In this document: positions 38,401 to 55,509 of the stretch, piece after piece
Layout: every line of letters begins with the position of its first letter
Position numbering within the stretch: position 1 is the first letter of the stretch
NCBI GenBank assembly: GCA_038060895.1
Contig: JBBTCT010000001.1
Span: forward strand, 288,001-352,000
DNA length: 64,000 nucleotides
Source of the DNA: Planctomycetota bacterium
GTDB taxonomy: Bacteria > Planctomycetota > MHYJ01 > WSZJ01
Direction of reading: 5' to 3'
Made by a program: the position numbers and the translations under genes
Notes under the pieces: generated by a model
Told to the model about the DNA's origin: nothing
The model's database searches: none
Seen by the model: the letters and a program-made list of their open reading frames with translations, nothing else

Positions 38401-38982
38401 ATGAGATCCACCCTCCGCCTGTTCACAGCTCTGGCCGTTGCGGCATTCTTCGCATCGGGATGCGGAGAGCGGGATGCGCCGCGCGTCTACCGGGCGCCGA
38501 AGGAAGCGCCTGCTCCAGCGCCGGCAGACCCCGGCACTTCCCTGGAAGCTCCCCGCTGGGTCGTGCCGGCGGGGTGGAAGCAGCTGCCCGACCAGCAGAT
38601 GCGCTTTGCGACCTTCCAGGTCGATCCGAACGACCCGAAACTCATCGTCACTGTCTACTCGTTCGGACCGGAGTCCGGAGCGCTTCTCCCCAACGTCAAC
38701 CGCTGGGAGCAGCAGATCGGCGCACCGGTGAGCGCGGAAGCGGATCTGCCGAAGGTCGTGAAGAAGCTGAAGAGCAACGGGCTGGAGATCGACGCGATTG
38801 ACCTGCTGGGGGTTGCGCCGGAGGGTCAGGCTGAAAAGCAACGGATGCTGGCGGCCATCATGCCGGTGGGGTCCAAGGTCTGGTTCCTGAAGTTCGTCGG
38901 GGCGGAATCGAAGGTCGCGGCGCACCAGGCCGACTATGAAGCGTTCCTGCGCTCGATTTCTTTTGCACCGTCCGGGGAGTGA
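38401..38982 (+). CDS. Conserved hypothetical lipoprotein upstream of ccsBA
   Basis: ASGC lipobox; W.VPAGW, NVNRW, WFLK motifs. Confidence 0.7.
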   Translation: MRSTLRLFTALAVAAFFASGCGERDAPRVYRAPKEAPAPAPADPGTSLEAPRWVVPAGWKQLPDQQMRFATFQVDPNDPKLIVTVYSFGPESGALLPNVNRWEQQIGAPVSAEADLPKVVKKLKSNGLEIDAIDLLGVAPEGQAEKQRMLAAIMPVGSKVWFLKFVGAESKVAAHQADYEAFLRSISFAPSGE

Positions 38983-38989
38983 GCCGACC

Positions 38990-41977
38990 GTGAAGTCGCA
39001 CCTCAAATCGCTCGCGTCGCTGAAGCTGACCGTCGCGCTTCTGGCTGTCTCGATGCTGCTCGTCTTCGCCGGCACGCTGGCGCAGATCGACATGGGGATC
39101 TGGCAGGTGCAGAAGAAGTACTTCCACAGCCTGTGGGTCTGGGTGGAGTTCCAGGTCTTCCTGCCCCGGCCGGAAGCGGGCGCCGAGCCGACCCCGGGAG
39201 GGTTCCCGCTGCCCGGCGGCTACCTGATCGGCGCGCTGATGCTGGTCAACCTGCTCGCCGCGCACTCGCTGCGGTTCAAGCTCACGCCGCGGCGCTCGGG
39301 GATCATCATGATCCACCTCGGGCTCATCTTGCTGCTTCTGGGAGAGCTGGCCACGAGCCTGTTCGCCGTCGAAAGCCAGATGACGATCGACGAAGGGCAG
39401 ACGGTGGCGTTCTCGCAGGACATCCGATCCGCTGAACTCGCGGTCGTCGACCCTTCCGCCCCTGACAGCGATTCGGTGGTTGCGTTCCCGGAGTCGGCGC
39501 TCGTTCCGGCGGCGAAGCTGCGGCACTCGCTGGTGCCGTTTGAAATCACGGTGCACGAGTACGAGGCGAACAGCCAGCTTCTCGGCCCGCGGCAGGCGCC
39601 GCCGGATGCGGTTTCGAAAGCGACGGCGGGCTTCGGCCAGGGGGTCATCCTCAAGCCGCTTCCGCGCACCGCCGGCACGGACGGCGGCACCGATATGGCC
39701 TCCGCGCACGTCACGCTGATGGCGGACGGAAAGCTGATCGGGATCTACCTCCTCTCGTTTCACTTCGACCAGCCGCAGCCCGTGGTGGTGAACGGCAAGA
39801 CCTGGCTCATCGCGCTTCGATTCGAGCGCTACTACAAGCCGTACACCATGCACCTCATCGACTTCTCGCACGACCGCTACCTCGGCACCGATACGCCGAA
39901 GAATTTCTCGAGCCGCCTGCGCCTGGTCGATCCGGCGAACAACGTCGACCGGGAAGTCCTGATCCGCATGAACGAACCCCTGCGGTACGCCGGCGAGACG
40001 TACTACCAGTCGAGTTTCAAGCCCGGGGACAAGACGACGATCCTGCAGGTCGTGCGCAATCCCGCCTGGACGATGCCGTACATCGCCTGCACCGTCGGCG
40101 GTGTCGGCATGCTGGTCCACTTCGGCATCCTGCTGGTCGGGTTCCTTAAGAAGCGGACCGGGCGGGCGCGCGCGGCGGCGATGACGGCGGGCATGCCGGA
40201 GAGGTTGACGCTCCGGTCGCTGGCGTTCCCGCTCACGGTCCTGGCGCTGTCGCTCTTCTCCGTCCTGTGGGCGCTGAAGCCCCCGCCCTCCGCCGGTCCG
40301 GAGCAATTCGACTACGCCGGGTTCGGGAACCTCCCCGTGACGCACGACGGCCGCGTGCTCCCGATCGACACGCTGGCCCGCACCAGCCTGCAGGCGATCT
40401 CCGGGCGCCAGACCACGAAGATTCCGGCCGCCGAAACCGCAGCGTCCGATTGGAACAAGGTGCCGCCCGACCAGTGGAAGTCCGTCTCCGCCACGCAATG
40501 GCTGGCCGACGTCTTCTCCGGAACCGAGCGCTCCGCCGGGTACCGCGTCTTCCGCATCGACCACCCCGGCGTGCTCGGGATGCTGGGGCTTGAACCGGAC
40601 CGGAGCCCGCGGCTGTACTCGTTCCTCGAGATCCTGGAACAGAAAGAGAAGCTCCAGGAACAGATCGAACTGATTTCGGAAGTGGACGACAAGAAGCGCG
40701 ACGCGTTCCAGCGGAAAGTTGCGGACCTGCATCAGCGGCTGCAGATCTTCCTGCGGCTCGCGGACCTGGCCTCGCTCTACCTCGTCCCCCCGGTCGCCCC
40801 GGGCGAGGAGTGGCAGCAACTCGGGCACTTCGCGCCCTCGAGGACCGGTCCGCCTCCCCCGCCGCATCCGGCGGCCGAAGCGATTCTTCGCATCCTCGCC
40901 AGCTACCACGAGAACAAGCCGGCCGAGTTCAACAAGGAGGTCGCGACCTACCGCGACCTGATCGCCGGGAAAATTCCATCTGAGACAGGCATGGCCCGAT
41001 ACGAGGCGTTCTTCAACCGCTTCGACCCGTTCTACCGCGCCCAGATCCTCTACGTGGTCGTCTTCCTCCTCGGCTGCGTTTCGTGGCTCGTGTGGAGCAA
41101 GCCGCTCGGGCGCGCTGCGTACCTGCTGCTCTTCCTGTGCCTGCTCGTCCACACCTTCGGGATGGTTTCGCGGATCGCGATCTCCGGCCGGCCGCCCGTC
41201 ACGAACCTCTACTCGTCGGCAGTCTTCATCGCCTGGGGCGGCGTCCTCCTCGCGGCCATCCTCGAGTTCTTCTTCCGCAACATGATCGCGACTGTGACCT
41301 CGGCAGCAATGGGCTTCACGTCCCTCCTCATCGCTCACCGCCTCGCCGGCGACGGCGACACCATGCGCATGATGCAGGCCGTGCTCGACACCAACTTCTG
41401 GCTCGCCACTCACGTCGTCGTCATCACCCTGGGGTACGCCGCCACCTTCCTCGCCGGAATCCTCGCCATCGCCTACGTCGTCCTCGGCCTCTTCACCCGG
41501 CACCTCACCGCATCACGGCCCGGCCGGACGGAAGAAGATGCCCCAGCCGCCCTCCTGCCCCGGATGGTCTACGCCATCCTCTGCTTCGCCATGCTCTTCT
41601 CGTTCGTCGGCACCGTCCTCGGCGGCATCTGGGCTGACCAGTCCTGGGGGCGCTTCTGGGGCTGGGACCCCAAGGAAAATGGCGCCGTCCTCATCGTGAT
41701 CTGGAATGCCCTCATCCTCCACGCCCGCATGGCCGGATTCGCCCGCGACCGGGGCGTCATGCTCCTCGCCATCTTCGGCAACATCGTCACCAGCTGGTCC
41801 TGGTTCGGCACCAACATGCTCGGCGTCGGCCTCCACTCCTACGGCTTCATGGAGTCCGCCCTCTTCTGGCTCCTCATGTTCGTCGCTTCACAGCTCGTCC
41901 TCATCGCGCTCGGAAACCTTCCTCTTCGGCTTTGGCGCAGCTTCCGCGATGCAGCGCCGCCACGGCCCGCTGCCTGA
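38990..41977 (+). CDS. ccsA: Fused cytochrome c biogenesis system II protein (ResB/CcsB + CcsA)
   Basis: LASLKLTV, IRMNEPLRY, WLATHV, tryptophan-rich WADQSWGRFWGWDPKE, GLHSYG; GTG start at 38990. Confidence 0.9.
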   Translation: MKSHLKSLASLKLTVALLAVSMLLVFAGTLAQIDMGIWQVQKKYFHSLWVWVEFQVFLPRPEAGAEPTPGGFPLPGGYLIGALMLVNLLAAHSLRFKLTPRRSGIIMIHLGLILLLLGELATSLFAVESQMTIDEGQTVAFSQDIRSAELAVVDPSAPDSDSVVAFPESALVPAAKLRHSLVPFEITVHEYEANSQLLGPRQAPPDAVSKATAGFGQGVILKPLPRTAGTDGGTDMASAHVTLMADGKLIGIYLLSFHFDQPQPVVVNGKTWLIALRFERYYKPYTMHLIDFSHDRYLGTDTPKNFSSRLRLVDPANNVDREVLIRMNEPLRYAGETYYQSSFKPGDKTTILQVVRNPAWTMPYIACTVGGVGMLVHFGILLVGFLKKRTGRARAAAMTAGMPERLTLRSLAFPLTVLALSLFSVLWALKPPPSAGPEQFDYAGFGNLPVTHDGRVLPIDTLARTSLQAISGRQTTKIPAAETAASDWNKVPPDQWKSVSATQWLADVFSGTERSAGYRVFRIDHPGVLGMLGLEPDRSPRLYSFLEILEQKEKLQEQIELISEVDDKKRDAFQRKVADLHQRLQIFLRLADLASLYLVPPVAPGEEWQQLGHFAPSRTGPPPPPHPAAEAILRILASYHENKPAEFNKEVATYRDLIAGKIPSETGMARYEAFFNRFDPFYRAQILYVVVFLLGCVSWLVWSKPLGRAAYLLLFLCLLVHTFGMVSRIAISGRPPVTNLYSSAVFIAWGGVLLAAILEFFFRNMIATVTSAAMGFTSLLIAHRLAGDGDTMRMMQAVLDTNFWLATHVVVITLGYAATFLAGILAIAYVVLGLFTRHLTASRPGRTEEDAPAALLPRMVYAILCFAMLFSFVGTVLGGIWADQSWGRFWGWDPKENGAVLIVIWNALILHARMAGFARDRGVMLLAIFGNIVTSWSWFGTNMLGVGLHSYGFMESALFWLLMFVASQLVLIALGNLPLRLWRSFRDAAPPRPAA

Positions 41978-42038: not shown

Positions 42039-45000
42039 CTACTTCCCGATCTCCATCTCCCCCTGCCCCTCCCCCGGCTTCCCCGTCTTCACGCTCAGCG
42101 TCATCTCCATCCCCTCCAGCCAAAGCACCCGCGGATCGCCGTACTTCTTCGGGTAAGGCGCATTCACGCTGAACCACACGACGTCCGGCCGGCCGGCGCG
42201 GTGGTCCACCATCCACTCGGCGACGGTGATCTGCTGCGCATCGATGCCCTTGGCCGTGAGCCGGACCGAAGCAACCGTCTCGCCGTTCGCAAGCTCGAAG
42301 GACCCCATGACCCGCTCCGCGGCGTTCTGCTCCCGGCCGCGGTGCTGGTCAACGTCCTCCTGCGCTTTCACGTCCGTGAGGCGCACTTCAATCTGGAAGC
42401 CGTCATTGGTCGCGGTGCCGCGCGTCACGGAGACCGCGGACCGTCGCGGACTGGTCTTCACGAACGGCCGAAACGTCGGATCGCCGAATAGCATCCGGTT
42501 CTGCGTGACTTCCATCATGAAGCCGCCCGGAATCTCCACGCCCTCCTCCGGCTTTCCTTCCTCCTGGATCACCAGCGGATACGGGCCGTTCTTTCGCGAA
42601 GCCATCGCAACCTCGACGGCGTTGAGCCGGATCGCCTCGCCCAGCGACAGGTCCTCGCGCGCGGCGCGCGACGACTCGATCGAGCAGCGGTACCCGTGAT
42701 TCGCGCCGATCGGCGCGAGGTACGCCGCGGGGCCGTGTGCCAGGTACGCCAGGCACAGGGATTCGCCGGGCTGGAGGTCATAGAAGCGGTTCTTGTGATC
42801 GGTCGTCCCGAACGTTGAGACGATGTCGCCTCCGACGAGCGCTCTCTTCGTCACGGCGCTGTGGCAGGTCCCGCTCCAGAGAACCGTCCCGGAAAGGTCC
42901 CACGCGGCGGCGTCGCTCGGCCCGAGACCGGTCAGTTCCTTGTTCGCCCAGTCGCGGCAGATTTTCTTCGCGTCGTACTTCCAGTGCAGGTCGGGCTTCA
43001 TGTTGCGCTGGTCGCTGAAGAGCCAGATGCGCATCGGGTCGCCATTCCCGCAGATCGTCACGACGCCCGCGCCTTTCGCGGGCTCGAACGCCTTCGCGAA
43101 CTGGGAGCGCACCTTCGGCGCCTTCTCGACGCACGGGAAGTAAACGCTCGTGGTGGTCAGCCCGTCGGTCCCTTCCGTCGCCGGGTAGATGGTCACGTCC
43201 GTAAAGCTCGGCGTGACGCCGTAGTCCACTGCCTTCACCGGCAACCCGTCGCATTCGATCTTCGCCATCGCGTCGAGCATCGCTTGCACGTGCGCCGGCT
43301 CCGCGGCGGTCAGGTAGCCGATCGTCGCGTCCTGGAACGCGTCGCCGTCGAGTTGCTGAAGCGCGTACATGACGCGGCGGTTCAGGTTGATGTCGAACGT
43401 TTCCGGCGCGAGCACGACCGCGACGGCGTCGGCGCGGCGGCGCTTCGCCATGTCGCGGATCGGCTCCCACTGCGCGGGATCGTCCAGCCGCTCGCGCTCC
43501 GCGCCGCGGTACTGCGCCAGCCGGCGCGCCATCTTGTGAAACGACGACTTGCCGAGCTCGAGCACGATCATCCGCTTCCCGGGCGCCGCGCCCACCGACG
43601 CGAAGTCCGGCGGCAGGACGACTTCGCGGACAATGCGGTGCTTCTCCTGGCCGAGCCGAGCGAAGAACGTGATGTACCCGCCCTGCCCGACCATGAGGCA
43701 CGTGCCGTGGTACCGCTTTCCGTCCTTCTCCTCGCGCCCGCTCAGGCTCCAGCACGCGTGGCCTTTCGCAGGCCGGTCCGCAATGCGGTCGAGGAATCCC
43801 ATCGACTTCGTCGCGTACTCGAGGTACTCCTTCTTCCCCGTGTACCGGTACAGGTCGAGCATGAACGTCCCGGCGCCGGCCGTGCCGCAGCAGAGCGACG
43901 GCGCGTAGAACCCCGACTTCGCGCGGTTCTCGTCCGGATTCGTCTTCGTCAGCAGGTACTTCCCGCCTGCTTCCGCGGCCTGCAGGTACTTCGCATCCCC
44001 CGTCATCGAGTGAAGCAGCAGGTGCAGCCGGCATGTCCCGCTCGGCCCATGACACCACCCCTCCCACAGCCAGTCCTTCGTCCCGTCCGCCGGCACGTGG
44101 TGCTTCCAGGCCAGCGTCCCCTCGCCGCATACCGCGACCTCGTTGCGCTCGAGCCACCGCGCCGCCTGCTTCGCGCCCTCGAGGAAGCGCTCCTCGCCCG
44201 TCGCCGAAGCCATCCTCGCGAGCGTCGCGCCGATCCCGGCGACGCCGTGCGAGAAGCCGGTGTACGTCCGCTCTTCGCCCGCCGACGCCGGCCACGACCA
44301 GCCGTCGTCGCCCTTGCGCGCGGCCTCGAGCAACCCGTCCGCCGCTTCGACCGCCGCGAGGTGATACTTCGCATCGCCTGTCATCTGCGAAGCGTCCTCG
44401 AGCGCCAGGCAGATTCCCGCGCTGCCGCTGATTATGTCGAGCGCGCCGTTGTCCCAGAACTTTCCTTTCGCCTTCTCAATTGTCCCGAGCTGCGCGACGA
44501 CCCAGTCCATCCCGCGCTTCCCGGCCTTCAGCGCTTCTTCGTCGCCGAGCATGTCCCCCGCGGTCATCAGCACCCACGCAATCCCGGCCGTGCCGCTGTA
44601 AAGCGACGCGCGGCGACAGGTGTGCACGGCGCCCTGGTTGTCGTCCCACGCAATTTCCCAGGTCAGTCCGCCCTTGTCTTCGACGGCCTTGTCGATGAGG
44701 TGCCGCACGCCGCGGCGCGCCGCGTCGGCGTACCTCTTTTCGCCGGTCATTTCGTGAAGCGTCAGCAGCGACGCGATCGTGCCGGACACTCCGCCGTACA
44801 GCGAGTCCGTTGTGAACGGATCCGCGTCGAATTCCTGCCACCACGCCCCGCGCACGCCGCCCGGCTTCGCCTTTGCCTCGTCGTCCTTCATTTGCGCCAG
44901 AAGCCAGGCGCCGGATTCCGCGAGGAGCTTTCCTTCGGCGGAGTCGGCCGGGAGAAGCCGTCCGGCAGAAGCGGTCTGCGGGGCAGGCTTCTTCTTCGGC

Positions 45001-45077
45001 TTGTCCTCGCCGTAAACAGAAGCGCAGACAACAGTTGCGGCGGCGATAAGCGTTGAAAGGCGAAGGGCGCGGCGCAT
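42039..45077 (-). CDS. Secreted LanC-like (lanthionine synthetase C-like) protein fused to a C25/caspase-like domain
   Basis: Signal peptide; seven GxxG repeats including FSHG, WCHG, LCCG; C-terminal CGNG, GTCH, LFGDP. Confidence 0.75.
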   Translation of the reverse strand: MRRALRLSTLIAAATVVCASVYGEDKPKKKPAPQTASAGRLLPADSAEGKLLAESGAWLLAQMKDDEAKAKPGGVRGAWWQEFDADPFTTDSLYGGVSGTIASLLTLHEMTGEKRYADAARRGVRHLIDKAVEDKGGLTWEIAWDDNQGAVHTCRRASLYSGTAGIAWVLMTAGDMLGDEEALKAGKRGMDWVVAQLGTIEKAKGKFWDNGALDIISGSAGICLALEDASQMTGDAKYHLAAVEAADGLLEAARKGDDGWSWPASAGEERTYTGFSHGVAGIGATLARMASATGEERFLEGAKQAARWLERNEVAVCGEGTLAWKHHVPADGTKDWLWEGWCHGPSGTCRLHLLLHSMTGDAKYLQAAEAGGKYLLTKTNPDENRAKSGFYAPSLCCGTAGAGTFMLDLYRYTGKKEYLEYATKSMGFLDRIADRPAKGHACWSLSGREEKDGKRYHGTCLMVGQGGYITFFARLGQEKHRIVREVVLPPDFASVGAAPGKRMIVLELGKSSFHKMARRLAQYRGAERERLDDPAQWEPIRDMAKRRRADAVAVVLAPETFDINLNRRVMYALQQLDGDAFQDATIGYLTAAEPAHVQAMLDAMAKIECDGLPVKAVDYGVTPSFTDVTIYPATEGTDGLTTTSVYFPCVEKAPKVRSQFAKAFEPAKGAGVVTICGNGDPMRIWLFSDQRNMKPDLHWKYDAKKICRDWANKELTGLGPSDAAAWDLSGTVLWSGTCHSAVTKRALVGGDIVSTFGTTDHKNRFYDLQPGESLCLAYLAHGPAAYLAPIGANHGYRCSIESSRAAREDLSLGEAIRLNAVEVAMASRKNGPYPLVIQEEGKPEEGVEIPGGFMMEVTQNRMLFGDPTFRPFVKTSPRRSAVSVTRGTATNDGFQIEVRLTDVKAQEDVDQHRGREQNAAERVMGSFELANGETVASVRLTAKGIDAQQITVAEWMVDHRAGRPDVVWFSVNAPYPKKYGDPRVLWLEGMEMTLSVKTGKPGEGQGEMEIGK

Positions 45078-48092: not shown

Positions 48093-49310
48093 ATGAAATC
48101 GACATCTCGATGGCTCCTTCTGGCCGCCGTCTTCGTTTTCCCCGTCTCGGGCTGCTCTTCCACCGAACCTGCCGCGCCAAACCAGCCCGAACAGGAGTCC
48201 GCAAAGGTCCTCGGCAAGGTCGCGGGGCGACTGTTCGGCGCTACGGGGATCACCGTGGAAGCGCTGGTCAGCGTCGGCGGGGGCGGCGGGAAGAATTTCC
48301 TGCGAACCACATGGGCGGAGCCTGGGGTTTATCGCGAAGAGCGTTGGGACGGTGAAGCGCCGGAAGGAGAGCCGGCGAGCGTGCAGATCTGCGACGGGAC
48401 GACAACGTGGCTGTATTTCCCAGGCCAGAAGAAGTTCTACGAGATGGCGATCGCATCGGGGGACCTGGACCGGAAGCCGTTCGTGCTCGGGTTCACGCGC
48501 GAAGGACGGCTGGCCGTGATGGGGATCGAGTCCGGGCGCGAGGAGGAACTGGTCTTCGGCGCGGGAAGCCTGTGCATGCCGATCGCCGGCGGGGGAAAAC
48601 TGGCGGTCGAGGCCGATGCCGACGTGTCGGGCCAGCTCTGTCATGTCCTCACCTATCGCGTCGGCACGATGGTCCAGACGTTCTTCATCTCGAAGGCCGA
48701 CAGCACGCCGCTGCGCTTCATGCTCGAAAGCAGCTTCGAGCACAAGGGAAAGACGTTCACCACGACGGCCGTGAGCGACCTCAAGCGCCTCGATGCGATG
48801 TCGCGGCCGGACGCGGCGATGTTTCGCTTCGTCCCGCCCGAAGGGGCCACCAAAGCGGCCAAGGCGGGCGAGGACAAGCTGCTGGCGGCGGGCGGGGATG
48901 CGCCGGAGCTCGGCGCGGTGGACGCTTCCGGCAAGCCCGTGAACCTGGCGGACTTCAAGGGCAAGGTCGTCCTCCTGAACTTCTGGTTCCTGGGCTGACA
49001 TGCCTGCCGCGCGGAGTTTCCGCACCTGCAGAAGCTGAGCGAAGAGATGAAGGACAAGGACGCGGTTTTCCTGATGGTCAACGGCGTCGACACGCCGGAG
49101 AAGGTCACGAGCTACCTCAAGGACGGGCGCTACACGATGCCGTGCGCCTACAAGAGCGCCGAGTCCAACCCGATGAAGTCGTACTCCGTCCGTTTCTGCC
49201 CGACGCAATACATCATCGGCCGCGACGGGAAGATCAGTGCTCGAACAGTCGGGGCCACGATCGTCGAGGTCCGACGGATGCTCGACCAGGCCCTGGGCGA
49301 GAGACGCTAG
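48093..49310 (+). CDS. Probable selenoprotein: lipoprotein with a LolA/DUF2092-like domain and a TlpA/ResA redoxin domain (UxxC, Sec302), 405 aa
   Basis: ORFs 48093-48998 and 49047-49310 share a frame; read-through gives GKVVLLNFWFLG-U-HAC-RAEFPHL...CPTQYIIGRDG; hairpin 3' of the TGA. Confidence 0.8.
49004..49031 (+). promoter_or_regulatory. Candidate bacterial SECIS hairpin
   Basis: CTGC-cgc-GCGGA-GTT-TCCGC-acct-GCAG; the G-first apical loop begins after a 17-nt gap from TGA 48996-48998. Confidence 0.6.
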
Positions 49311-49317
49311 CGCGGCC

Positions 49318-50265
49318 ATGAGCTACGTCAGCCGCCCCGCGTTTCCTTTCTGCCTCGGCGGCAATGTCTTCGGCTGGACCACCGACGAAACGGCGTCGTT
49401 CGCGGTGCTGGACGCCTTCGCGGATGCGGGCGGCACCTTGATCGATACCGCCGACATGTACTCGGCATGGGTGGAGGGTCACGCCGGCGGGGAGTCGGAA
49501 GCGATCCTGGGCCGGTGGATGGCCTCGCGGCGCTGCCGCGACCGGATGGCAATCGCGACGAAGGTCGGCTTGCTGAAGGGGCTGGAAGGACTCGCGCCGG
49601 CGACCATCCGCACCGCCGCCGAGAATTCGCTTCGCCGGCTTCAGACCGACCGGATCGACCTCTACTACGCGCATCGCGACGACGAAAAAACGCCGCTCGC
49701 GGAAACACTCGGCGCCTTCGACGCGCTCGTCCGCGCCGGGAAAGTCGCCCGGATCGGCGCTTCGAACTACAAGGCGAGCCGCCTGGCCGAAGCGCTGTCC
49801 GTGTCGAAGCAGAACGGTCTCGCGCGATACGAAGCGATCCAGCCGCACTTCAATCTTGTGCACCGTACCGAGTACGAGGGGGAGCTCGCCGGACTCTGCT
49901 CGCGCGAGGGAATCGGCTGCTTTCCCTATTTCTCGCTCGCGAAAGGCTTTCTCACGGGAAAGTATCGTCCCGGGAAAACCGTCGACAGTCCCCGCAGCAA
50001 GGGCGCGAGCAGCTATCTCGACGAACGCGGCCTGCGAGTTCTCGGGGTCCTGGATGCCCTGTCTGCGACGCACCACACATCTCCCGGAGCCGTCGCGCTC
50101 GCCTGGCTGCGCGCCCAGCCGACAGTGGTCGCACCCATCGCCAGCGCGCGCTCGGCTGCGCAGCTCGCCGAGATTCTGCCGGGCGCGACGCTCCGACTTA
50201 CGGAAGCTGAGTTGGCGCGGCTCAGCACAAGCGCCGAGCCAAATGTTGCAGGAAAGACTTCATGA
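49318..50265 (+). CDS. Aldo/keto reductase
   Basis: LGGNVFG, DTADMY, IATK, SLRRLQTDRIDLYYAH, IGASN. Confidence 0.92.
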   Translation: MSYVSRPAFPFCLGGNVFGWTTDETASFAVLDAFADAGGTLIDTADMYSAWVEGHAGGESEAILGRWMASRRCRDRMAIATKVGLLKGLEGLAPATIRTAAENSLRRLQTDRIDLYYAHRDDEKTPLAETLGAFDALVRAGKVARIGASNYKASRLAEALSVSKQNGLARYEAIQPHFNLVHRTEYEGELAGLCSREGIGCFPYFSLAKGFLTGKYRPGKTVDSPRSKGASSYLDERGLRVLGVLDALSATHHTSPGAVALAWLRAQPTVVAPIASARSAAQLAEILPGATLRLTEAELARLSTSAEPNVAGKTS

Positions 50266-51587
50266 CTCAGCGCGTCGTTGCGGCAGGGAACATCGCCGAG
50301 TTTCTCTCGGCCGTCGCGGCGGGGAATGCGACAAAAGCTCGCGAACAGCTGCGCTCTCAGCCCGGGATCCCGAAAGCGAGCCTCGCGGCAGCTGCCGTGC
50401 TCGGCCAGTTCGCCACAGTCGAGCGATTCCTCACGGCAGATCCGAAGCTCGCCCGACTCAAGACCGGCACGCCGCCGCGCGAACCACTTCACTGGCTGTG
50501 TTACTCGCCCTTCTGCGCCAGACGAGGTCCTCAGATTCTGCGCTGTGCCAAGGCCTTGCTCGACGCGGGAGCCGATCCCGACGCCCACACCGTCGAGCGC
50601 GAGGGGACGCACACCTATCCGCTTGGGGCGCTGTACGCCGCGGCGTGCCATGCGAAGTTTCCGAAGCTTGCCCGGCTGCTCCTCGATGCCGGCGCGGATC
50701 CCGACGACGGGGAAACCATCTTTCACGCGGCGGAAGCGAACGACCGCGTCATCCTGAAGATGATGGTCGAGTACAAAGCCGACCTCGACTTCAACAAGAC
50801 CTGGGGCAACACCGCGATCTACTTCAACCTGGGACACAAGAAAGGCAGCCGCTTCGTCGCGGCCTCGACGCGCGGCATCCGCTGGCTCCTCGAGCACGGC
50901 GCCGACCCGAACGTCCCGAGTACTCCCAAGCGCGAAACGGCGCTTCAGCTGGCAGCCCGTTCCCGCAGTCCGGAAACGGTGAGGCTGCTTCTGGAGCACG
51001 GCGCCGACGTGACGCTGAAGCGAAAGGACGGCCGGACGGCCTGGGCGCTCGCCGTGCGCGCGGGCCGTGTGGACAACGCGAGGCTCCTCGAAGCGCACGG
51101 GGCGAAGACCGAGCGGCTCTCCGACGGAGACGCGCTCCTGGCCGCCTGCGGCCGGGGCGACGACGATGTCGCGCGCCACCTGGCCAGAGCGCGCATCTCC
51201 CTCAGACCCGACGACCTCCGCCTCCTTCCCGACGCCGCCTCCGACGGCCGCCTCGGCACCGTCCGCGCCTGCCTCGCCGCAGGATTCCCCCTCGACGTCC
51301 AGGGTGACTTCACGGGAACCGCGCTCCAGCACGCCGCCATGCAGGGCTGCCCCGACGTCGTGCGCGAGATCCTCAGGCACAAGCCGGACCTCACGAAGCG
51401 CGACCCGACCTTCGACGGCGATGCCCTCGGCTGGGCGCTTCACGGCGCGGACAACATCCGGCGGCCTGGCGCCGACTACGCTGCCGTCGTGGAAGCGTTG
51501 TTCGCAGCCGGGCTCAAGCCACGGCGGCATGACTACAGCTCGACGGATGCAGGAGTGATGGAAGTCCTGAAGCGGCGACGGAAGTGA
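50262..51587 (+). CDS. Ankyrin repeat protein
   Basis: Repeated LLDAGADP/LLEHGAD, TALQLAA, TALQHAA. Confidence 0.85.
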   Translation: MTQRVVAAGNIAEFLSAVAAGNATKAREQLRSQPGIPKASLAAAAVLGQFATVERFLTADPKLARLKTGTPPREPLHWLCYSPFCARRGPQILRCAKALLDAGADPDAHTVEREGTHTYPLGALYAAACHAKFPKLARLLLDAGADPDDGETIFHAAEANDRVILKMMVEYKADLDFNKTWGNTAIYFNLGHKKGSRFVAASTRGIRWLLEHGADPNVPSTPKRETALQLAARSRSPETVRLLLEHGADVTLKRKDGRTAWALAVRAGRVDNARLLEAHGAKTERLSDGDALLAACGRGDDDVARHLARARISLRPDDLRLLPDAASDGRLGTVRACLAAGFPLDVQGDFTGTALQHAAMQGCPDVVREILRHKPDLTKRDPTFDGDALGWALHGADNIRRPGADYAAVVEALFAAGLKPRRHDYSSTDAGVMEVLKRRRK

Positions 51588-53041: not shown

Positions 53042-53091
53042 GTCTCGTTCGACTGCAGAATCGTCCGCCGGTTTCCCTTAGCATGTCCACC

Positions 53092-55509
53092 ATGTCGGAC
53101 CAGCCGCTTCAGCCCGGCGCCCTCGACCGCCTCGCCCGCGAGGTCGGGAAGGAGCGCACAAAGAGCGCGGCCGGCGCTGCCCCGGCATTCGGCTGGGTCC
53201 CCGGATCCGGCGCGCCCGCGATGATCGGTCGGTTCCGGATCGTGGCGCCGCTCGGACGCGGCGGGATGGGAGTGGTCTACCACGCGATCGATTCCGCGAA
53301 CGACGCCCCGGTCGCCCTGAAGTCGCTCACGGCGGGGCCGGGGGAACGCCTGAAGCGCGAAGGCGAGGCGATTGGGCTTCTCGACCATCCGGGGATCGTG
53401 AAGATCCTCGAGACGGGCGAAGAGGCCGGAAAGCCGTTCCTCGTGATGGAACTCGTGAACGGGAAGACGCTCGACGAAGCGTGGGCCGGATGGGATCTGC
53501 GGACCCGGGTTGAGGCGCTTGAGAAGATCGCGCGGGCGGTCGCGCACGCGCACGAACGCGGCGTGGCGCACCGGGACTTGAAGCCGGCCAACGTGCTGGT
53601 CGCGGAAGACGGCGCCCCGCGCGTGACGGACTTCGGGCTCGCGGCGGTCGAGGAGGCGAGGACGAAGCTGACGGACCCCGGGTCGGTCATGGGGACGCCC
53701 GCCTGGATGTCGCCCGAGCAGGTGCGTGGCGAAACGGCCGGTCCTCCCGCGGACGTCCACGCCCTGGGTGCAATCCTCTACCTCGCGATGACGGGCACCG
53801 CGCCCTTCGACGGGCCCAACCCTCCGGCGATTTATCGCCGGATCGTGGACGAAGAGGCCCCGTGGCCGCGCCGGAAAACGCCGGGCGCGCCAGCCGCCCT
53901 GGAAGCGATCTGCGTGCGGGCGATGGGCAAAGTGCCCGTGCGCCGGCCCTCCGCGAACGAATTCGGAGACGAGCTGAAGCGCTGGCTCCAGGGGGAGCCG
54001 GTCCTCTCACGGCTGCCTTCGGTGACGGTGCGAGTCTGGAAACGCGCGCGCCGGAATCCTCTCGCCTGGGTCGGGCTCGCCGCGGCCGTCGTCGCGCTCG
54101 CGGCCGGCGCTTCCGCCCTCGCGGTGCAGGGCGCACGGCATGCGACGAAGGAAAGAGCCCGTGACCTCGCTCGCGACGCGCAGCCCCTCGCGGCCCAGGC
54201 GCTCCTGGCGCTGTCCGCAGGTGACGACGCGAGCGCGGCGCGGCTGATGGCCGATTTCAGGTCAAAGATGGAAGAAGCGCGCGCGCTCGACCCCGCGGCC
54301 GCCGGCGGCTGGTTTGAGATCGCGGAGTACCTGCGGCTCACAGGCGACGAGGACGGCGCGATGCGCATCGTCCAGGAAGGCGAGGCCCTGCACCGGAACC
54401 ACCCTCTTCTCCTGCTGGAGCGCGGCCTCCTGCTCATGGCGGAACTGCGGCGCATCAAACGCCGCGCGGACATCGAAGCGGAAGCTTCCGCGCGCGCGGG
54501 GGGACCGAGAGAAGCGAGCCGTTCACTCGCAATCCAGGTCCCCGAGATGGGGACGGTCGTCTCCGACATTCTGGCGCGCGCCATCCGGGATCTCGGCGGT
54601 TCCGCACCGCCCTCCGCGCGCATCGCCCGGGCGGAACTCGCGCTTCTCCAGTCGCATCCCGAGGAAGCGTGGACGCTGGTCGAGGGGCTCGAGCCGCCTG
54701 AAGCAAAGGTCGTGGCCGGACAGGTCAAGGAAGCGCGCGGGAATCTCGAGGAGGCCCTCGCCTGGTACTCAAAGGCGATCGCGACCCGGGACCGCCACTG
54801 GCCGGCATGGGAAGCGCGCGCCGCGGCGCGCGAACGGTTTGCGTCGATGCGTTGGAGGCCAGGCGCCGAAGACGGGGAATCCGAGCAGGCCGATGCGATT
54901 GCAGACTGGAAGCGCCTCGCGGCCGCTCTCCCCCGCCGCGCCGACATCCACCTTTCCCTCTCCGCCGCGCTCTGCCGCCTCGGCCAGATGAGGATCTACC
55001 GCCGGGATAACCCCACGGAACCGTGCCAGCTCGCCCTCCAGGCCGCCGAGGATGCCCTCGAAATTGCGCCCGCGAGCGGCGAAGCCCGGCTCGCGGCCGG
55101 CCGCGCGCTCGCCGAGATCGCGGACTGGCGCTTCTACCACGACCCCGATCCGCTTCCCGCCTACGCCCGCGCCATCGCGGAACTCGAGGCCGCCACGCAG
55201 GCGCTTCCGAGATCCTTCGAAGCGCGGCTCGCCCTGGCGCGGACCTTCCGGATGCGCGGATTCTGGAAACGGGTCCATGGCGGTCCCCCGGCAGGCGAGG
55301 ACGACGAGAGGGCGCTTAACGAATTCGAAGAAGTTCTGGGAATCAGCCCGGTCTGGCTTGCCGCGCGCTGCAACCAGGGATTGATTCTGTTTGAGCTCGG
55401 GCGCTTCAAGGAAGCCGTCGGGGCATTCGAGCAGGGCGGGAGCTGGACGACGAACAGCGAGTCGACCCTTCGCGTCTTCGAGGAAGCGAAGAAACGCGCA
55501 GCGGAGTAG
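53092..55509 (+). CDS. Ser/Thr protein kinase with a TM-like segment and TPR repeats
   Basis: GRGGMG, VALK, HRDLKPAN, DFG, GTPAWMSPE; ATG 53092 lies 7 nt after TAGCAT (alternative start 53083). Confidence 0.9.
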   Translation: MSDQPLQPGALDRLAREVGKERTKSAAGAAPAFGWVPGSGAPAMIGRFRIVAPLGRGGMGVVYHAIDSANDAPVALKSLTAGPGERLKREGEAIGLLDHPGIVKILETGEEAGKPFLVMELVNGKTLDEAWAGWDLRTRVEALEKIARAVAHAHERGVAHRDLKPANVLVAEDGAPRVTDFGLAAVEEARTKLTDPGSVMGTPAWMSPEQVRGETAGPPADVHALGAILYLAMTGTAPFDGPNPPAIYRRIVDEEAPWPRRKTPGAPAALEAICVRAMGKVPVRRPSANEFGDELKRWLQGEPVLSRLPSVTVRVWKRARRNPLAWVGLAAAVVALAAGASALAVQGARHATKERARDLARDAQPLAAQALLALSAGDDASAARLMADFRSKMEEARALDPAAAGGWFEIAEYLRLTGDEDGAMRIVQEGEALHRNHPLLLLERGLLLMAELRRIKRRADIEAEASARAGGPREASRSLAIQVPEMGTVVSDILARAIRDLGGSAPPSARIARAELALLQSHPEEAWTLVEGLEPPEAKVVAGQVKEARGNLEEALAWYSKAIATRDRHWPAWEARAAARERFASMRWRPGAEDGESEQADAIADWKRLAAALPRRADIHLSLSAALCRLGQMRIYRRDNPTEPCQLALQAAEDALEIAPASGEARLAAGRALAEIADWRFYHDPDPLPAYARAIAELEAATQALPRSFEARLALARTFRMRGFWKRVHGGPPAGEDDERALNEFEEVLGISPVWLAARCNQGLILFELGRFKEAVGAFEQGGSWTTNSESTLRVFEEAKKRAAE

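Follow-up and report, generated by a model that had tools for sequence, protein, structure and literature searches.

ResA of Bacillus subtilis, TlpA of Bradyrhizobium, and Etrx1 and Etrx2 of Streptococcus pneumoniae, which are extracytoplasmic, membrane-anchored thiol-disulfide reductases, depend on a CcdA/DsbD electron donor; by the titles of their PDB entries, the Etrx proteins are lipoproteins. Selenocysteine (Sec)-containing redoxins are also on record: Table 1 of a 2026 review (PMC13188914) lists a "Prx-like thiol:disulfide oxidoreductase" family (PF00578, UxxC), of which the tables of a 2006 survey contain eight members (PMC1794560), and the same review lists families named "thiol:disulfide interchange protein" and "UGC-containing TlpA disulfide reductase." DUF2092 has been linked to LolA in PMC4520260. 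Here, we describe a gene from a Planctomycetota bacterium (assembly GCA_038060895.1) that joins a domain of the LolA/DUF2092 type to a redoxin. It lies in a window of 64,000 nucleotides, the whole stretch of DNA that was analyzed (positions 288,001 to 352,000 of contig JBBTCT010000001.1). The region 48093-49310 of the window very probably encodes one 405-residue selenoprotein that is exported, lipid-anchored via Cys21 in this genus, and predicted to act as an envelope reductase. A preliminary description made from the letters alone had proposed an exported lipoprotein in which a LolA/DUF2092-like domain is fused to a TlpA/ResA-like UxxC redoxin, and the analysis supports that proposal. Support is good for the recoding part of this reading, whereas its physiological part is one that we infer. 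The gene is mis-annotated, and selenoproteins of its class are already on record in bacteria. Its features are as follows.

48093-49310, plus strand: selenoprotein open reading frame (ORF) with ATG at 48093, an in-frame TGA and a TAG stop; 405 aa
48093..48155, plus strand: start codon, signal peptide and lipobox V18-S-G-C21, read from the sequence; Cys21 is the predicted lipidated mature N-terminus
48186..48857, plus strand: LolA/DUF2092-like beta-barrel, approximately residues 32-255, ending F-x-F-x-P-P (profiles of relatives, AlphaFold2 model, Foldseek)
48876..49307, plus strand: TlpA/ResA-like thioredoxin-fold domain, approximately residues 262-405, with U302-H-A-C305 and cis-Pro P370 (Pfam, Foldseek)
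48996..48998, plus strand: in-frame UGA, selenocysteine residue 302 (same TGA in orthologs, Cys in homologs)
49005..49030, plus strand: selenocysteine insertion sequence (SECIS) element within the codons for C-R-A-E-F-P-H-L (comparison, folding, bacterial SECIS [bSECIS] criteria)
49308..49310, plus strand: true stop codon TAG (orthologs end at the same alignment position, four of five with TGA)

From its ATG at 48093 the ORF begins MKSTSRWLLLAAVFVFPVSGC and contains a single in-frame TGA, at 48996-48998, which is codon 302 and stands where the UxxC motif of the redoxin begins (...VVLLNFWFLG-TGA-HAC-RAEFPHL...). Past the TGA, 103 further codons in the same frame lead via FCPTQYIIGRDG, which holds P370, to the TAG at 49308-49310. 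The preliminary description had placed the TGA at the first Cys of the thioredoxin motif and had read the frame as open for 103 codons through the cis-Pro region to a TAG ending at 49310, and both statements hold. The window is GC-rich and contains many spurious long ORFs, so that an open frame alone is weak evidence. A single Pfam match to AhpC-TSA/Redoxin, however, covers residues 266-392 (E 1e-17) and is unbroken across the TGA, making the continuity of the ORF more than chance. TGA is otherwise an ordinary stop codon in this neighborhood, where it ends four of the seven neighboring genes and is internal to none of the seven; as four of the five orthologs described below also terminate with TGA, a global reassignment of this codon is ruled out. 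A separate downstream gene from ATG 49047 (87 aa) is likewise rejected because it would have neither the active site nor the initial half of the fold.

Homologs were collected from 60 related genomes and the source genome itself. Full-length orthologs were found in five of seven genomes of the same genus at 67-80% identity, each with exactly one TGA, and the segment LLNFWFLGUHACRAEFPHLQ is identical in all five. U is also present in four more distant LolA-type homologs that belong to other families within the class or the phylum and in which the motifs read FWFSTUGAC, FWFHGUGGC, FWFYGUGWC, and FWFSHUSTC; a class-wide search of 56 genomes found no homolog beyond those already collected. One Cys form, P0004, has 405 aa, is 56% identical, and reads FWFLG-C-HAC where U302 stands. 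U302 also aligns with Cys in P0013, L030, and L031, the last two of which read FWATWCPPC. Homologs with Cys and homologs with TGA at this position, which the preliminary description had suggested looking for, therefore both exist. Across an alignment of 42 sequences, the column of residue 302 (C/U), C305, and P370 show no variation or almost none. In the six sequences from the genus the part after the UGA is 102-103 codons long and free of frameshifts, and its ratio of nonsynonymous to synonymous substitution rates (dN/dS) falls within 0.085-0.446 for each of the 15 pairs, similar to the values over the 150 codons before the UGA (0.18-0.41). The downstream half is under purifying selection, and the decay that had been named as a possible refutation is not seen.

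Gene callers do not follow the frame through the UGA. The product of this gene (approximately 301 aa) and those of ten related clusters in the protein collection end at the UGA, at 290-315 aa, and the splitting by gene callers that had been anticipated is thus evident; one truncated cluster is named "outer membrane lipoprotein-sorting protein," and the others are LolA-like or unnamed. Such truncation, together with the existence of a Cys form (P0004), is what would be expected of a pseudogene, that is, of a Cys-type LolA-TlpA gene in which TGC or TGT had mutated to the nonsense codon TGA and the 103 downstream codons were decaying. A pseudogene is nevertheless difficult to reconcile with five orthologs that keep the TGA at 67-80% identity along with 102-103 downstream codons at the dN/dS values given above, or with 87 distinct relatives from metagenomes that have the same TGA followed by an intact frame of approximately 101-110 aa. 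Protein divergence of 20-33% between the orthologs excludes that they are assembly copies of one sequence. We consider a pseudogene highly improbable. A single-base sequencing or assembly error in which TGC was read as TGA has an even smaller chance of being correct because the TGA is found at the same codon in independent assemblies of five other species and in metagenome contigs from many records. With the TGA and the frame kept in five orthologs and the downstream part under purifying selection, neither explanation is tenable.

Decoding of the UGA as Sec depends on machinery that this organism has. The source assembly consists of 47 contigs and is 86.5% complete; it encodes SelA (541 bits), SelB (344 bits over two segments), and SelD (364 bits), each above its curated cut-off, and a tRNA-Sec (selC) that scores 71.7 bits, also above cut-off, and that ARAGORN reports as SeC with anticodon tca. 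The Sec machinery is therefore complete, and the four genes that the preliminary description had proposed to look for are all present. The selD gene, on contig 2 at 48628-49548 (minus strand) and outside the window (locus L010), has one in-frame TGA itself, and the selenophosphate synthetase of this organism is probably also a selenoprotein. Redoxin paralogs with a single in-frame TGA are common in the lineage, with dozens among the matches in relatives and one in the source genome (contig 35, 63285-63704, minus strand); the lineage seems to be rich in Sec-redoxins that gene callers would split.

A hairpin follows the UGA directly. Its core, GCGGA-GUU-UCCGC at 49011-49023, has a 5-bp stem (49011-49015 with 49019-49023) and a GUU loop (49016-49018); beyond it are a C.A mismatch (49010/49024), a G-C pair (49009/49025), and a lower stem (49005-49007/49028-49030). 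The hairpin begins 11 nt past the UGA and the loop G at 49016 lies 17 nt after it, in agreement with the G-first GTT loop and 17-nt spacing of the preliminary description. Six of the seven pairs of the family register are formed, with a minimum free energy (MFE) of -11.6 kcal/mol. The hairpin lies within every limit quoted for bSECIS elements in PMC13188914, namely an apical loop of 3-9 nt, an upper stem of 4-16 bp, G in the first two loop positions, a spacing of 16-37 nt, and an MFE of -7.5 kcal/mol or lower. The pattern occurs once in the source genome.

In ten Sec forms derived from genomes, the hairpin has the same register, and its variable pair is C-G in six, A-U in two, G.U in one, and U-A in one. 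To these, we added relatives from a scan of metagenome contigs with the degenerate pattern F-W-F-x-x-UGA-x-x-C-[R/S]-x-E-F-P-H, in which informative pairing positions were set to N; the scan returned 111 stretches with 113 matches and 87 distinct 48-mers. Among these 87, Arg is without exception followed by a GNG codon, the second base of which is paired in every case to the synonymous third base of the Pro codon (GAG/CCT 56, GCG/CCG 21, GGG/CCC 8, GTG/CCA 1, GTG/CCG 1), compared with a mean of 47.8 and a maximum of 61 in 10,000 shuffled trials. Arg is encoded by CGT, which completes a U-A pair, in 80 of the 87, a codon used for only 101 of 1,270 Arg residues in the rest of these ORFs; the hairpin Pro codon is likewise CCT in 56 of 87 as against 94 of 1,227 elsewhere, and Phe is TTT in 84. 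Taken over 89 distinct Sec-form 45-mers, all seven register pairs are formed in 80 and six in the remaining 9, and the MFE averages -12.7 kcal/mol. Sites from genome contigs, scanned with peptide patterns requiring Cys at the U position, served as the control; the 61 sites obtained form 1-6 of the seven pairs (mode 3), their MFE averages -4.9, and two Cys forms that encode E-F-P form only five and three pairs. Covariation and codon bias in the Sec forms, set against the few pairs in the Cys forms, show that the hairpin structure is under selection in the former and does not simply follow from the peptide.

Several observations weigh against our reading or limit what it rests on. Folding of the single sequence 48990-49070 is no better than that of shuffled sequences (z = +0.35), and support for the hairpin consequently comes from comparison and not from energy. 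Searched against Rfam, 48800-49350 matches no SECIS family, the sole match being a chance snoRNA (E 2.2). The metagenome pattern fixed E-F-P-H, leaving only four to five of the seven pairs free to vary. The Arg codon is CGC in this gene and in three of the five orthologs, which gives the C.A mismatch, and the stem of this gene, with 5 bp and one outer G-C pair, is somewhat weaker than the family norm. Two of the seven congeners (G006, 85% complete, and G007, 87% complete) have no full-length match. The NCBIfam scores of the protein are below the cut-offs for ResA (71.5 vs. 170), TlpA (52.6 vs. 230), StoA (48.4 vs. 210), and DsbE (31.5 vs. 123); it is therefore not an ortholog of any of these, and the function of the characterized proteins is not transferable to it. 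Gene neighborhoods are not conserved either: among 76 neighboring ORFs at 18 LolA-type Sec loci, no family occurs at more than two.

At the N-terminus, the context ...FVFPVSG-C21 agrees with the lipobox consensus [LVI][ASTVI][GAS]C, and (A/S)G-C is kept in all five congeneric orthologs, in P0004, and in L172; the VSGC lipobox noticed at the outset is thus a conserved feature of the genus, and most of the distant relatives have an AxA-type signal peptide in its place. The barrel domain that follows matches Pfam DUF2092 at 18.3 bits, below the cut-off of 21.2 and over residues 176-254 only, whereas aligned relatives score 43-56 bits. The assignment as LolA-like, also made in the preliminary description, therefore rests on the relatives and on the predicted fold, and on these grounds it is upheld. 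The domain includes an insert of approximately 40 residues (approximately 125-165) that is specific to the genus. The C-terminal domain matches AhpC-TSA (64.7 bits, cut-off 26) and Redoxin (64.4 bits, cut-off 26.6). An AlphaFold2 model built from the 42-sequence alignment has a mean predicted local distance difference test score (pLDDT) of 86.3 and a predicted template modeling score of 0.79, with the insert poorly modeled (pLDDT < 50 at 149-161). The predicted fold is a LolA-like open barrel followed by a ResA/TlpA-like domain. In Foldseek comparisons, the C-terminal domain matches ResA, Etrx2, and 4nmu at target TM-scores (TMt) of 0.85-0.90 and root-mean-square deviations of 1.7-2.0 Å; matches of the N-terminal domain include 1iwl (TMt 0.63) and 2yzy (0.75) as well as 8cgm, 8orn, and 9tp6, with an overall range of 0.39-0.75 at probability 1.00. 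In the model, helix 303-318 starts at U302-xx-C305, and P370, the predicted cis-Pro, is invariant in the alignment.

Beyond the active site the protein has the cysteines C161, C184, C351, and C369. C161 lies within the genus-specific insert (LCMPI), and C184 is present in many distant relatives. C369 directly precedes the cis-Pro (FCPTQY), where distant relatives have Y/F-PTN; in thioredoxin folds, a Cys beside the cis-Pro lies close to the active site, and C369 could form a selenylsulfide.

The redoxin part resembles the Prx-like and UGC-containing TlpA selenoprotein families in its AhpC/TSA-type thioredoxin fold, in having Sec first in a UxxC motif that aligns with Cys, in the bSECIS directly after the UGA, and in being predicted by the same logic of Cys/Sec pairs. 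It differs from them, as far as their descriptions allow a comparison, in the added LolA/DUF2092-like N-terminal domain, in the lipobox found in the genus, and in the motif FWFxxUxxCRxEFPH with its very uniform SECIS. Scores are also well below the cut-offs of the curated NCBIfam Sec models (NF041054 WAxxUGC_long, 24.1 vs. 300; NF053656 TUGYCR, 20.3 vs. 100; NF040769 SelL-related, 23.5 vs. 120). With ResA, TlpA, and Etrx1/2, it shares the fold (TMt 0.85-0.90), the position of the CxxC motif, the cis-Pro, and membrane tethering; these proteins use Cys and not Sec, and none has a LolA-like domain. The barrel resembles LolA/DUF2092 carriers (1iwl, 2yzy, 8cgm, 8orn, 9tp6) in the open form seen in the model, in its F-x-F-x-P-P end, and in a conserved D-G turn, and relatives score above the Pfam cut-offs for DUF2092 and LolA although this protein stays below that of DUF2092. 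Unlike the carriers, it is joined covalently to a redox domain and contains the genus insert, and no evidence of lipoprotein trafficking was seen. The nearest counterparts in layout are Cys-form fusions of approximately 380-420 aa with the same two domains (P0004, P0013, P0014, P0016, P0017, P0029, P0032, L030, and L031), which are named only generically ("thiol-disulfide isomerase/thioredoxin"). P0004 shares the xHAC motif with our protein; the fusions mostly have WCxPC, with E-[LM]-P in place of E-F-P, and are without the hairpin.

The N-terminal domain varies among Sec forms. Of the complete Sec-form ORFs that the metagenome scan returned, 64 are distinct; TPR repeats precede the redoxin in 26 of these, and at E ≤ 0.001 the N-terminus matches DUF2092 in 18 and LolA in 7. 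In six of the ORFs, the approximately 70 residues before the UGA comprise only a signal peptide and the beginning of the redoxin. A Sec-TlpA module with its SECIS is thus common to several architectures. The preliminary description had not recognized the architecture as a described one, but the layout is not unusual: the Cys form is present in public protein sets, and the Sec form accounts for at least 18 of the 64 metagenome ORFs. The LolA-redoxin fusion is present unremarked in public sequence sets and is not described in the literature searched, which held no selenoprotein with a LolA-like domain and no TlpA-LolA fusion; supplementary lists of selenoproteomes were outside the scope of that search and may hold the clade. 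In the 26 TPR-type ORFs, a TPR array of approximately 420 aa stands N-terminal to the Sec-TlpA module (e.g., L121, L156, and L163), and some of these arrays weakly match the CcmH/CycH TPR domain. L152 and L190 each have two Sec-redoxin sites on one short contig. Two further Sec forms, L026 (genome G055) and L028 (genome G028), have approximately 600 residues before the UGA that, by eye, comprise two tandem LolA-like repeats, each ending F-x-F-x-PP, followed by the redoxin domain.

We propose that SelB and Sec-tRNA(Sec) decode the UGA at 48996-48998, steered by the compact hairpin downstream, a seven-position stem with a GUU loop that is embedded in the codons for R-x-E-F-P-H. The selenocysteine would be the attacking residue of the CxxC-type motif U302-H-A-C305 in an extracytoplasmic, membrane-tethered selenol/thiol reductase that would reduce disulfides or sulfenates of envelope clients. 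It may be kept reduced by a CcdA/DsbD-type membrane protein of the same genome, where one DsbD_TM gene is found (113 bits); this protein is the putative natural electron donor of the redoxin because such dependence is established for ResA, TlpA, and Etrx. The cavity of the LolA-like barrel may act as a module for binding a substrate or partner, probably for something hydrophobic, and the whole would then be an envelope reductase that holds its clients by a LolA-like barrel.

The other genes around the locus are the following.

38936-41977, plus strand: ResB + CcsA fusion ORF, 1013 aa (Pfam), 6.1 kb upstream of the selenoprotein gene
42042-45077, minus strand: LanC-like protein, 1012 aa; nearby, no evident link seen
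49318-50265, plus strand: aldo/keto reductase gene, starting 8 nt after the selenoprotein stop
50262-51587, plus strand: ankyrin-repeat protein, 441 aa; nearby, no evident link seen
53083-55509, plus strand: Ser/Thr kinase with TPR repeats, 808 aa; nearby, no evident link seen

The upstream flank is a divergent YfiH-like (Cu-oxidase_4) gene, which precedes the ortholog in one of the five congeners. The aldo/keto reductase follows the ortholog in four of the five, its match beginning at the ortholog stop codon or only a few bases from it, which suggests a cytoplasmic reductase co-transcribed with an exported redoxin. The ResB + CcsA fusion is present at 71-85% identity in all five congeners searched; within the match, the copy in G002 has one in-frame TGA and that in G001 one TAG. 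Functional inference from operons was dropped because no partner family recurs at the 18 LolA-type Sec loci.

Two alternatives to a general envelope reductase concern its substrate. The protein might be a dedicated reductase of cytochrome c maturation, in the role of ResA or CcmG, that serves the CcsBA-type fusion 6 kb upstream, a link that the preliminary description had raised as speculative. ResA is its best neighbor both among NCBIfam models and in structure (TMt approximately 0.9), and in the nearest congener, G002, the two genes lie on one contig approximately 8.3 kb apart. That is the case in only one of the five congeners, however; in G003, the genes are on different contigs although the ortholog sits 76 kb into its contig. 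In the window they are separate transcription units, with genes of both strands between them (the LanC-like gene, further ORFs, and the YfiH-like gene on the opposite strand), and synteny does not support the link. Furthermore, no cytochrome-biogenesis or cytochrome-assembly, ResB, DsbD, or Lol family is among the families that recur in the 76 neighboring ORFs, the ResA score is less than half of its cut-off, and other redoxin paralogs in the genome (nine matches) could take the role. We therefore regard a dedicated role in cytochrome c maturation as unlikely. The other alternative is that the enzyme acts on hydrophobic oxidized substrates, with an acyl chain or lipid held in the cavity and the Sec-Cys pair reducing a lipid hydroperoxide or an oxidized lipoprotein in the manner of GPx4. 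It is established that Sec in the attacking position favors peroxide and sulfenate chemistry, the domain is of the AhpC/TSA type, and at least 18 of the 64 Sec-form ORFs carry the fusion; LolA-fold cavities, moreover, are reported to bind acyl chains (PMC4520260). Yet a UxxC spacing and a ResA-like fold are typical of disulfide reductases and not of peroxiredoxins, the gene context offers nothing in its favor, and the Sec module is also found on TPR repeats (26 of 64) or alone, which argues for interchangeable protein-binding adaptors. Direct action on lipids accordingly has a low probability in our estimation. A broader form of the same idea, which we hold to be a long shot, would make the Sec-TlpA domain with its mini-SECIS a mobile module carried on a LolA-like domain, on TPR repeats, or on no further domain, the LolA version being an envelope repair enzyme directed at lipids or lipoproteins whose barrel would deliver the acyl chain, lipid hydroperoxide, or oxidized lipoprotein to the selenocysteine. 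If true, this would be a lipid- or lipoprotein-directed envelope repair enzyme without a characterized counterpart in bacteria.

For the reductase with a client-binding adaptor that we favor, the consequences begin with annotation. The truncated annotations lack the catalytic domain, and the protein itself passes no NCBIfam model; a profile model for this clade would correct many annotations from soil metagenomes. The family is also an unusually clean case of an RNA signal shaping a protein, in that the residue after CxxC-Arg is limited to A/E/G/V, the Pro codon tracks the GNG codon, and Arg and Phe are specified by codons that are otherwise rare, and it would make a good natural dataset for the rules of SECIS recognition. 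Finally, that a Sec redox module recurs on adaptors of the LolA-like and TPR types suggests that poorly studied soil bacteria have envelope redox clients yet to be described.

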